A stretch of DNA of 64,000 bases, from the sequence record NC_105512.1; one strand, given 5' to 3'. Positions 1,791-6,965 of this stretch are shown here, one piece after another. Position numbers and translations under genes: made by a program. Within the stretch, counting starts at the first letter, position 1, and each line of letters begins with the position of its first letter. The notes below the pieces were generated by a model, which saw nothing but the letters and a program-made list of their open reading frames with translations, did no database searches and was not told the DNA's origin. Source of the stretch: Escherichia phage JLBYU43.

Positions 1791-1873
1791 CGGGCCGTGT
1801 AGGAGTTGAACCTACTTTATCCTTGCGGATACGGATTAACAGTCCGGCGCTTAAACCGTTCAGCCAACGACCC
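1791..1873 (-). tRNA. tRNA-Asn (GTT) with enlarged variable region
   Basis: Anticodon arm CGGACTGTTAATCCG matches the E. coli tRNA-Asn arm as recalled; acceptor GGGTCGT/ACGGCCC; T-arm GTAGG-TTCAACT-CCTAC; CCA at 1788-1790. About 15 nt (ATCCGCAAGGATAAA, itself a small hairpin) lie between anticodon stem and T-stem. Confidence 0.55.
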
Positions 1874-2029
1874 TAAATTTATATTGCTGACTAGGATTTT
1901 CACCTAGACGGAGTTAGCACCGTAGCGTGTAGCGGCATACCTCTCCAAACCGTGCCTCATCTTTCAATTACTGAGGCAGTGTTCCTACGCGTGCCTGAAC
2001 TGTTTTAACAATTCTTTCAGCAAATTGGA

Positions 2030-5884: not shown

Positions 5885-5958
5885 TTACCGACCGTAGGAT
5901 TCGAACCTACATCTTCCACCAGTTACGGCTTGATAATACCAATTATACTAGGACGGCA
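5885..5958 (-). tRNA. tRNA-like element, anticodon arm not resolvable
   Basis: Good T-arm (GTAGG-TTCGAAT-CCTAC) and D-loop-like AATTGGTA; acceptor GCCGTCC/GGTCGGT pairs with one mismatch. No 5-bp anticodon stem could be folded. Confidence 0.3.
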
Positions 5959-5995: not shown

Positions 5996-6478
5996 CTAAC
6001 CAAAGTTAGTAAATTCTTTATGTAAGGATTCTCTTAATATCTTAGAGGCCTCGAAAGCCTCTTCCGCAGTTTTAAACCCTCTTTTACTGTAATTTTTTCC
6101 TTCATGTCTTACTTGGTATCTCCAGGAAGAGCCTTCCCAACTTACTCCTTTGTACCCAGAAGTATTATTGCATTGTTGGTTTCTATTCGCATTGTTTTGC
6201 GATCTAGAGGCGTCCCTTAGATTATTTTTCCTATTATTTCTAGGATTAGTATCCTTATGATCTACTTCTTCAGGCCTATATCCATAGTACATAATAAACA
6301 ATAAGACATGCAGTTGATAGGTGTCGCCCTGAAATCCCACATCTGGGTGTGATTTCTTATTATTGGCACAACACTCTTTCAAACCTTTCTTTGTTTTCCT
6401 ATATAGTACCCCATTATCAGGATCAGCTACAAAATATTTTTCAAGTATTTCTTTAGTAGGGTATTCTTTCCTTTTCAT
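5996..6478 (-). CDS. HNH homing endonuclease with AP2-like DNA-binding domain
   Basis: HNH motifs (HHKD.N..NN..NLR) followed by SGYKGVSWEGSSWRYQVRHEGKNYSKRGFKTAEEA; paralog of CDS 46900-47409. Confidence 0.75.
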   Translation of the reverse strand: MKRKEYPTKEILEKYFVADPDNGVLYRKTKKGLKECCANNKKSHPDVGFQGDTYQLHVLLFIMYYGYRPEEVDHKDTNPRNNRKNNLRDASRSQNNANRNQQCNNTSGYKGVSWEGSSWRYQVRHEGKNYSKRGFKTAEEAFEASKILRESLHKEFTNFG

Positions 6479-6521: not shown

Positions 6522-6965
6522 TTAATTAAATTCGCCAGCAACCTGAGCAGCAATGCCACCGTCGTAACGACCAGGAAACTCTTCCTTAATCGCTTTCATC
6601 AGCATACCTTTTGTAATCCCAGGATTCAACTTAACTAATTCTGCAAAGTATTTGCGAATCTCAGAATCAGATAACTGAGGCGGCAGATACTGCTGTAACC
6701 ATTTGTTCAGTATATATTCATACTGAGCAGACTGCAAGCTATAATTATCAAGGTCTTGACCGTGAAGTTTAGCTTTCGTCTGATTAATGCTTTTCAGTTG
6801 AGCTTTTAGATAAGATACAAACTGTTCAGAAGTAATGAAGTCTTTATCAACACGCTGAAGATCTCCGATTATGGTCTGGTAGCTTTTAGCTACTTCTTTA
6901 TCAGAACCATTAAACTTGGATTCCTGCAAAGCCCTACGCAAAACATCTAGAATATTCTCTTCCAT
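6522..6965 (-). CDS. hypothetical protein (147 aa)
   Basis: ORF-track ORF, protein-like composition; no confident family assignment. Confidence 0.55.
   Translation of the reverse strand: MEENILDVLRRALQESKFNGSDKEVAKSYQTIIGDLQRVDKDFITSEQFVSYLKAQLKSINQTKAKLHGQDLDNYSLQSAQYEYILNKWLQQYLPPQLSDSEIRKYFAELVKLNPGITKGMLMKAIKEEFPGRYDGGIAAQVAGEFN

Follow-up and report, generated by a model that had tools for sequence, protein, structure and literature searches.

Why would a phage tRNA for asparagine carry a long, hairpin-forming variable arm, a feature that textbooks restrict to the Leu, Ser, bacterial Tyr and selenocysteine (Sec) tRNAs? The question is raised by a gene near the start of the stretch of Escherichia phage JLBYU43 analysed here (NC_105512.1; 64,000 nucleotides (nt), hereafter the window), which a first-pass annotation had described as a tRNA-Asn with a 15-nt insertion in its variable region. 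We confirm that the feature is a genuine tRNA-Asn(GUU) whose long variable region forms a hairpin, and place it in a form of tRNA-Asn that recurs across phages. Our best overall explanation, to which we give a probability of roughly 0.4, is that it is a functional phage tRNA-Asn(GUU) with a class II-like core, whose arm is kept against the tRNA-cutting nucleases (tRNases) of bacterial defence.

A complete tRNA-Asn(GUU) with a hairpin in its variable region

Infernal, run over the whole window, matched the Rfam tRNA model RF00005 (gathering score 29 bits) at 1791-1873 of the minus strand with 54.7 bits (E=5e-9, model positions 1-71), and ARAGORN called tRNA-Asn(gtt) over the complete gene (Table 1), with GUU at positions 34-36. 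Covariance-model folding, which the first-pass annotation had proposed as a check, returned the canonical tRNA-Asn(GUU) fold; an alternative fold or another anticodon, of which we found none, is ruled out by the GUU cloverleaf that Infernal, ARAGORN and RNAalifold alike recover. The acceptor stem has 7 base pairs (bp), all formed and one of them U.G, the anticodon stem has 5 bp with a 7-nt loop, and the T stem has 5 bp with a T loop of the UUCRA type, which bears out the earlier description of the acceptor and T arms as good. U8, A14, G18G19, U33 and A37 are there, as are GGUUC in the T arm (the end of the stem with the T loop) and A58. The anticodon arm had been likened to that of E. coli tRNA-Asn, and rightly so: the 15-mer CGGACTGTTAATCCG is identical, the identical run extends to 18 nt (CGGACUGUUAAUCCGUAU), and the E. 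coli sequence used for the comparison was itself matched at 100% in 5,425 E. coli genomes, where it is annotated as tRNA-Asn. The arm retains the U36AAUC40C41 of the host tRNA.

Between the anticodon and T stems, where about 15 nt with an ATCC/GGAT mini-hairpin had been noted, lie exactly 15 nt, and both covariation and RNAalifold agree on the hairpin. (ARAGORN counts 16 nt because it leaves the C27.U43 mismatch unpaired.) A class I tRNA has 4-5 nt here and no helix; the window gene has a 4-bp stem and a tetraloop, and so shows the class II fold, a variable region of more than 10 nt with a stem-loop. It belongs to none of the canonical class II isotypes (Leu, Ser, bacterial Tyr, Sec), since GUU and G73 mark it as Asn. 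The single-sequence minimum free energy fold rearranges the D/anticodon region and retains the acceptor stem, the variable hairpin and the T arm.

Other Rfam families gave only sub-threshold chance matches between 1740 and 1920 (Plastid-ycf2, 20 bits, on the opposite strand; HIV SL3). A promoter and terminator scan around the gene found nothing above background, and a plus-strand "terminator" call nearby is the T arm itself.

The arm is conserved and covaries across phages

Over its first 8 kb the window shares 91-94% identity with T5-like phages of Salmonella and Escherichia (Demerecviridae); this part belongs to their tRNA region, and ARAGORN places 11 tRNA genes in it, all on the minus strand. 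A BLAST search with the 86-nt gene among 50,697 phage records matched 596, 592 of them over at least 80% of its length. Thirty-one of the 596 are 100% identical, including Salmonella phages bobsandoy, S113 and atrejo and Escherichia phages HildyBeyeler (Bas33) and SuperGirl; the others range from 74 to 99% identity and include unrelated phage families. Carriers are found among the Demerecviridae (Epseptimavirus, Tequintavirus, Priunavirus, Novosibvirus), the T4-like Straboviridae (Winklervirus, Jiaodavirus, Moonvirus, with Enterobacter and Erwinia phages) and the rV5-like Stephanstirmvirinae (Phapecoctavirus). The arm is retained throughout and its sequence varies: GUC-GAAA-GAC-AAC in Eps7 and CHI14, GUUC-GAAA-GGAC-AAC in PSTCR5, GUCA-GAAA-UGAC-UAG in KpV477, GUUC-GAAA-GAAC-AAU in ESCO5 and GUCG-GUAA-CGAC-AAG in CF1.

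A remnant lies in Proteus phage Pm5461 (L007 61-103; L numbers are our locus labels). It comprises no more than the 5' half of a long-arm-type tRNA-Asn, which runs up to the anticodon stem and gives way to unrelated sequence, and part of it coincides with the end of a gene annotated as a hypothetical protein.

In an alignment of 24 homologues, RNAalifold independently predicted the cloverleaf together with the variable stem. All seven acceptor pairs covary, and compensatory changes occur in every helix. In the variable stem all four pairs have changed on both sides and 97.8% of the cells are paired; 500 shuffles all fell short of the alignment both in pairing percentage and in covariation score, and in slid controls 34-48% of cells were paired. 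The middle base of the 3-nt spacer that follows the hairpin is A in all 24 sequences. The variable hairpin is real and not a product of chance.

These comparisons recast what had been said of the gene at first. Its arm, common to an orthologous family of 596 phage records, makes it typical of its own phage family, which on the first-pass annotation's own terms tells against an anomaly; it nevertheless stays atypical among cellular tRNA-Asn, and also beside the class I alleles of phages T5 and T2. The extra length stands, but not a recent insertion, since the arm is old, conserved and accompanied by a co-adapted class II-type D arm; an insertion private to this phage is ruled out by the broad conservation.

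Long-arm tRNA-Asn is widespread in viruses and almost absent from cells

How common is this form beyond sequenced phages? We searched with a pattern that spaces the Asn anticodon arm and the T loop by 15-26 nt. It matched at least 120 IMG/VR contigs, including contigs of 300-430 kb, and essentially all of the matches are real tRNAs, on very different backbones; the trait occurs in marine, soil and jumbo-phage contigs. The phage, IMG/VR and cellular matches listed comprise 107 unique long-arm sequences; clustered at 90% identity they fall into 83 groups, and at 80% into 42. In a 120-locus sample selected blind to arm length, the long arm was present in 16 of 101 unique viral tRNA-Asn against 20 of 555 other class I tRNAs (odds ratio (OR) 5.0, p=1.7e-5), and in a sample blind to both arm length and anticodon-stem sequence it was present in 8 of 98 viral tRNA-Asn, for a share of about 8-16% of the sampled viral tRNA-Asn genes.

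The same pattern, scanned against one genome per species for 185,579 bacterial and archaeal species (596 Gb), gave at least 80 loci, where we estimate that about 100 chance matches are expected. Most are matches to coding sequence or odd tRNA-like repeats, and given this large share of chance matches the scan probably covered most of the collection. Among the cellular matches listed, 17 fold as long-arm tRNA-Asn, none of them enterobacterial, and 11 of the 17 lie within arrays of 7-36 tRNAs per 8 kb (in Micromonospora, Verrucosispora, Agromyces, Methyloprofundus and others); for such arrays, in Actinobacteria and in further bacterial groups, a putative anti-defence function has been proposed (PMC12803027). 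A search of 5,426 complete E. coli genomes turned up no long-arm homologue of the window gene. Long-arm tRNA-Asn is thus widespread in phages, essentially virus-specific and almost absent from cells outside mobile tRNA arrays.

Some loci in Saprospiraceae and Muribaculaceae/Sangeribacter metagenome-assembled genomes (L258 5499-5796, L238, L249, L266, L307, L311) hold tandem partial tRNA-Asn-like units. The Saprospiraceae units, with a 128-nt period in L258, carry a 7-bp palindromic hairpin (CCCGAUAGCUAUCGGG) at the variable position and have no proper 3' acceptor strand.

Asn identity marks on a class II-like core

The anticodon and G73 form a transplantable bacterial Asn identity set (PMC9976931), and the window gene has both. 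G73 is found in 97 of the 107 unique long-arm sequences (91%) and U1 in 68%, against 86% and 76% in short-arm viral tRNA-Asn; phage tRNA-Tyr of the same loci has A73 (65/67, 97%) and G1 (90%). The arm itself has a uniform geometry across the 107 sequences, with a stem of 3-4 bp, 0-1 unpaired nt on its 5' side and 3-4 on its 3' side, in agreement with phage and bacterial tRNA-Tyr (3 nt) and unlike Ser (1 nt, 4-7-bp stems) or Leu (2 nt). GNRA loops close 63% of the long-arm tRNA-Asn hairpins and 6% of those of Tyr, and are about as frequent in phage Ser and Leu arms as in Asn.

The rest of the molecule is adapted to the arm. A class II core combines a D stem of 3 bp with a larger D loop and a non-Watson-Crick pair at 13-22, and the window gene is built in this way, with G13.A22. 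A 3-bp D stem occurs in 42 of 85 long-arm and 11 of 93 short-arm viral tRNA-Asn (OR 5.7, p=6e-7), and in all 10 long-arm tRNA-Thr(UGU). Several long- and short-arm tRNA-Asn (L012/L210 and L106/L198, for example) have their acceptor, anticodon and T arms in common, and the D arm and variable region differ jointly. The two switch together: the Asn tRNA has a class II-type core in integrated form, and is no class I tRNA into which a hairpin was inserted.

Of the codons in the window's long open reading frames (ORFs), 5.6% are for Asn (AAU 3.6%, AAC 2.0%). The intact and constrained cloverleaf, the Asn identity set with its encoded CCA and this codon demand together suggest a working Asn-decoding tRNA that is most likely charged by the host asparaginyl-tRNA synthetase (AsnRS) and reads AAC and AAU for an AT-rich phage rich in Asn codons. 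Bas33, which has the identical gene, needs no extra tRNA-Asn when confronted with the PARIS defence system, and we take this as indirect support for charging with Asn.

Class I alleles in T5 and T2

The model phages have a different solution. T5 tRNA-Asn (T5t17) is a class I tRNA of 78 nt, with the variable loop GGGUU and the anticodon arm GCAUC-UUGUUAA-GUUGA (G39 U40 U41). It occupies the same locus as the long-arm allele of Eps7, to judge by their common 3' flank; the 3' flank in the window differs. Alleles of the T5 type, at 95% identity or more, occur in about 134 phage records. T2 tRNA-Asn (L318 1459-1533) is also class I, and its anticodon arm, AUCGC-CUGUUAA-GCGAU, has the same U39-to-G change. 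Long-arm alleles from the phage genome records examined keep U39C40, whereas the T5 and T2 class I alleles have G39.

T2 tRNA-Asn is the preferred homing site of SegB (PMC2330249). In T5 the class I allele is overlapped by T5.069 (L315 8953-9525), which related records name a T5orf172 domain protein or a putative homing endonuclease; in the window only a short gap separates the tRNA-Cys and tRNA-Asn genes (Table 1). A homing endonuclease may lie behind the replacement of one allele by the other.

The class I alleles of T5 and T2 may also be the reason why the arm was overlooked. We found no description of a long-arm phage tRNA-Asn in the open-access literature, recent phage-tRNA papers included (older Russian and subscription papers on the tRNAs of the T5 group lay outside this scope), and class II-like phage tRNA-Asn is apparently undescribed.

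A possible role against defence tRNases

What might such an arm be good for? The PARIS nuclease AriB cuts the Lys(UUU), Thr(UGU) and, more weakly, Asn(GUU) tRNAs of E. coli at 40|41, after U36AAUC, and Belukhina et al. found that a change of U39 abolishes cleavage and that the Lys, Thr and Asn tRNAs of T5 jointly neutralise PARIS (PMC12409363). Position 39 is substituted in all three of these T5 tRNAs. The window gene lacks such substitutions, by which phage tRNAs of the T5 type evade nucleases (PMC12409363, PMC10264068); its anticodon arm has the U36AAUC|C41 of E. coli with no substitution at the nuclease site. We speculate instead that the arm alters the shape of the junction between anticodon stem and core beside positions 40-43, so that tRNases that dock on class I tRNA-Asn would bind or cut the long-arm form poorly, while the anticodon arm would be left host-like for AsnRS, for Q34/t6A37 modification and for decoding. 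The arm would then be an alternative to the anticodon-stem substitutions of the T5 and T2 class I alleles. That the arm is kept because it reshapes this junction we put forward tentatively, and with no more confidence than the explanation as a whole; that long-arm tRNA-Asn, joined in some phages by tRNA-Thr(UGU), constitutes a virus-specific fourth class II-like family whose arm is a steric shield against defence seems to us doubtful.

Circumstantial support comes from phage Bas33. Among its class I isotypes a long arm is found only on Asn(GUU) and Thr(UGU), two of the three AriB targets, and each retains UAAUC unchanged; the third target, tRNA-Lys(UUU), is absent from its tRNA set, and the long-arm gene is the only tRNA-Asn found in its tRNA region. 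Bas33 was rescued from PARIS by T5 tRNA-Lys alone, and T5Mos and Bas34 also needed T5 tRNA-Asn (PMC12409363). Bas34 (Escherichia phage SelmaRatti) would seem to be a counter-example, as its annotated tRNA-Asn (L316 17599-17684) is a long-arm gene. That copy has a 3-nt deletion and three broken acceptor pairs, receives no ARAGORN call and scores 41.1 bits with Infernal; it is probably defective, which would explain the need for T5 tRNA-Asn, a result that surprised its authors, and we have set the counter-example aside. The arm emerges 3 nt from the cut site, which makes a steric or shape-based escape plausible, and there is a precedent for a variable-region change that defeats a tRNase in T5 tRNA-Tyr against the PtuAB nuclease of retron-Eco7/Septu (PMC13096335).

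Several observations weigh against this explanation. T7 and T4 were rescued from PARIS without any tRNA-Asn (PMC12409363), which weakens the argument from Bas33. We found no association of the long arm with UAAUC retention in viral tRNA-Thr(UGU) (6/10 against 27/56, p=0.73) nor with U39 in the unbiased tRNA-Asn sample (6/8 of long-arm and about half of short-arm sequences). T4-like carriers of long-arm tRNA-Asn have an unprotected, cleavable-type class I tRNA-Lys(UUU) with UAAUC, so PARIS-type pressure cannot account for every case, and the trait has spread far beyond enterobacterial phages. Covariation, finally, demonstrates that the hairpin forms and does not thereby prove its adaptive value.

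The long-arm tRNA-Thr(UGU) occurs in many T5-like phages (Bas33, L317 12775-12861; L020 4406-4492; L093 8998-9084). Its arm reads A-GGA-GUAA-UCC-CGUU, its D stem has 3 bp, and UAAUC is unchanged. Thr(UGU) is a prime target of PARIS, and T5's own tRNA-Thr(UGU) is a class I tRNA with G39.

Other explanations for the arm

Nearly as likely as protection from nucleases is that the arm is a structural legacy of a functional tRNA-Asn with a co-adapted class II-type core, and has no anti-defence role. The tRNA would have arisen by descent or recombination from a Tyr/Cys-like tRNA, or in one old conversion; loss of the hairpin would then lead to misfolding, and the form would have spread with mobile tRNA clusters. 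Once the variable region is taken out and the anticodon masked, the Cys profile is the nearest for 35/90 long-arm Asn bodies and the Tyr profile for 34/90, and short-arm bodies are closest to Lys and Gln (long against short: Tyr OR 4.1, p=1.4e-4; Cys OR 58, p=6e-12). The geometry of the arm is Tyr-like, GUA becomes GUU by a single change, and Asn identity needs just the anticodon and G73 (PMC9976931); other class I isotypes of phages (Cys, Thr, Ile(UAU), Trp, Phe) at times have arms as well, and the tests of association with the nuclease motif were negative. It is less at ease with the acceptor and T arms of several long-arm tRNAs, which match short-arm Asn and not Tyr, or with their Asn-like U1 and G73, and it leaves unexplained the fivefold excess of Asn over other class I isotypes, the near-absence from cells and the occurrence of Asn and Thr(UGU) as the sole pair in Bas33. 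A plain tRNA-Tyr with a mutated anticodon fits in part: the body is Tyr/Cys-like, and the acceptor and T arms with U1 and G73 are Asn-like.

It is rather improbable that the arm works through recognition, by tuning AsnRS charging, by blocking near-cognate class IIb enzymes (the aspartyl- and lysyl-tRNA synthetases, AspRS and LysRS) or a modification enzyme such as TrmB (m7G46), or by binding a phage factor; as an anti-determinant it would matter when the phage tRNA is over-produced. Class IIb synthetases approach their tRNA from the variable-loop side, and the constant A of the spacer and the frequent GNRA loops speak for such a role, as does a YqeY/GatB-tail-like protein encoded in the T5-like tRNA region (Table 1). 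Yet the stem varies freely in sequence, the GNRA frequency is matched in phage Ser and Leu arms, and we identified no protein common to the T5-like, T4-like and rV5-like carriers. A link of the arm to the YqeY/"tRNA amidotransferase"-like ORF was rejected, as the gene is limited to Demerecviridae and is present alongside class I and long-arm alleles alike. Actinobacteria, which are among the carriers, often make Asn-tRNA through a non-discriminating AspRS; if these carriers do so too, the arm can be no general anti-determinant for AspRS.

Charging with Tyr or Ser, and hence a recoding of Asn codons, is very improbable. The long arm, G73, G1-C72, G2-C71 and C11-G24 partly overlap with tRNA-Ser features, and nematode nev-tRNAs offer a precedent. 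So do allo-tRNAs (PMC5389517). Against this, G73 excludes Tyr identity (phage tRNA-Tyr has A73), the arm is too short for Ser at 3-4 bp and has the 3-nt spacer of the Tyr type, and GUU with G73 is the full transplantable Asn identity set (PMC9976931). The gene is also the only tRNA-Asn in the Bas33 tRNA region, and Asn codons are frequent in the window's long ORFs. A pseudogene or annotation artefact with a junk insert is effectively refuted by the perfect, high-scoring cloverleaf, by 100% conservation across many phages and by compensatory changes in every helix, although damaged relatives do exist (the broken acceptor stem of Bas34, the 5' half in Pm5461).

Other armed tRNAs and neighbouring genes

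The long arm of Asn has counterparts in other viral tRNAs. Viral tRNA-Ile(UAU) has variable regions of 21-27 nt, mostly with an AGAUUAG, AGAUAAU or AGAUUGG motif, and forms a separate class II-like family (IMG/VR contigs L023, L026, L027, L029, L030, L054, L077, L118, L142, L153, L196). Arms are occasionally seen on Phe(GAA), where they measure 15-27 nt and come from T4-like contigs, on Trp(CCA) at 15 nt and on Cys(GCA) at 11-18 nt; a GNRA loop and, as in Asn, a 3' spacer of 3-4 nt are frequent among them (L009 7816-7911, L025 4101-4185, L055 4387-4473, L013, L048, L050-L052). Such other armed class I tRNAs are commoner at loci with long-arm Asn (65/816 against 11/399, p=2e-4). The classical class II arms shrink in T5-like phages, where Asn and Thr gain one: the window's tRNA-Tyr has a variable region of 9-10 nt without a hairpin, that of T5 and Bas33 has 15 nt, and the tRNA-Leu genes of Bas33 have variable regions of 9 nt only.

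Three further features lie in the tRNA region of the window. The YqeY-like ORF, whose Pfam score is under the cut-off, appears to match T5.081, to judge from where it lies and from the "tRNA amidotransferase" label that related records give, and its product is putatively tRNA-binding. The HNH_3 ORF is typical of the homing endonucleases in T5-like tRNA clusters. A match to the Rfam tRNA model looks like a tRNA-like stable RNA; by position only, it falls in the same interval as a doubtful ARAGORN "tRNA-Ser(act)" that in T5 and Bas33 lies between tRNA-Arg and the YqeY-like gene, inside the "RNAX" of T5.

Table 1. Coordinates of the tRNA-Asn gene, its parts and its neighbours, counted from the first letter of the window
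Feature	Position	Strand	Remarks
Complete tRNA-Asn(GUU) gene with encoded 3' CCA, 86 nt	1788-1873	minus	ARAGORN; Rfam tRNA; RNA = GGGUCGU-UG-GCUG-AACGGUUU-AAGC-G-CCGGA-CUGUUAA-UCCGU-[AUCC-GCAA-GGAU-AAA]-GUAGG-UUCAACU-CCUAC-ACGGCCC-G-CCA
Acceptor stem, 5' strand GGGUCGU	1867-1873	minus	G1-C72 (U1-A72 in E. coli tRNA-Asn)
D arm GCUG-AACGGUUU-AAGC	1849-1864	minus	3 Watson-Crick pairs and G13.A22; 3-bp D stem in ARAGORN
Anticodon arm CCGGA-CUGUUAA-UCCGU	1831-1847	minus	GUU at 1838-1840; C27.U43 mismatch
Variable region, 15 nt	1816-1830	minus	stem AUCC 1827-1830 / GGAU 1819-1822
Variable-region GNRA tetraloop GCAA	1823-1826	minus
Variable-region spacer AAA, 3 nt	1816-1818	minus
T arm GUAGG-UUCAACU-CCUAC	1799-1815	minus	5/5 T-stem pairs
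Acceptor stem, 3' strand ACGGCCC	1792-1798	minus
Discriminator G73	1791	minus
Gap between tRNA-Cys and tRNA-Asn	1874-2025		152 nt
tRNA-Tyr	2446-2526	minus	variable region AUACCACGC
Rfam tRNA match	5886-5957	minus	35.5 bits; no ARAGORN call
160-aa ORF	5996-6478	minus	HNH_3 endonuclease domain, E=1.2e-11
147-aa ORF	6522-6965	minus	Pfam YqeY PF09424, E=2.4e-5, 24.9 bits (cut-off 27)

Significance and comparison with known tRNAs

Class II-like tRNA-Asn is a common and conserved viral form, which accounts for about one in ten of the sampled viral tRNA-Asn genes and is present in 596 sequenced enterobacterial phages. If the arm does protect against defence tRNases, it would represent a new, structural strategy of immune evasion and a second route beside point mutations in the anticodon arm. 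Whatever its role, the tRNA is a natural case of a probable AsnRS substrate in which a variable arm is apparently tolerated, and as such would be useful for tRNA engineering; it is also a caveat for tRNA annotation in phages that relies on isotype models.

How does the window gene relate to tRNAs that are already known? With the tRNA-Asn of E. coli and Salmonella (asnT/U/V/W) it has in common GUU, G73, the encoded CCA and the 18-nt run in the anticodon arm; the host tRNA differs in its variable loop (5 nt, AUGUC; in the window gene a hairpin arm of 15 nt), in its D stem (4 bp; in the window gene 3 bp, with G13.A22) and in its first pair (U1-A72; in the window gene G1-C72). T5 tRNA-Asn resembles it in genomic slot (via Eps7), isotype, G73 and CCA, and as a tRNA that the phage supplies in place of a host one cut by a defence nuclease (PMC12409363), but T5 combines class I architecture with a substituted anticodon arm, and the window allele combines the host's anticodon arm with a variable arm. 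Bacterial tRNA-Tyr is close to long-arm tRNA-Asn in its 3-4-bp arm with 0-1 nt on the 5' and about 3 nt on the 3' side, its 3-bp D stem, G13.A22 and G34 U35, and differs in having GUA, A73 and G1 where long-arm Asn has GUU, G73 and mostly U1.

Nematode nev-tRNAs also join a long arm to a class I-family anticodon, keep Ser or Leu identity and would recode. The allo-tRNAs do likewise, and their acceptor/T helices are 8/4 or 9/3, in contrast to the 7/5 helices and Asn identity marks of the window gene (PMC5389517). Class II-like tRNA-Asn is not described in the work on tRNA arrays as proposed anti-defence units (PMC12803027), yet 11 of the 17 cellular long-arm tRNA-Asn lie inside such arrays. A further parallel is T5 tRNA-Tyr and the PtuAB nuclease of retron-Eco7/Septu (PMC11555353, PMC13096335), where a change in the variable region is a counter-measure to a tRNase, as we infer for the window gene. 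PtuAB cuts inside the variable arm, which T5 alters or shrinks; in the window gene an arm has been added to a normally armless tRNA, and the nuclease site, 40|41, lies beside it.

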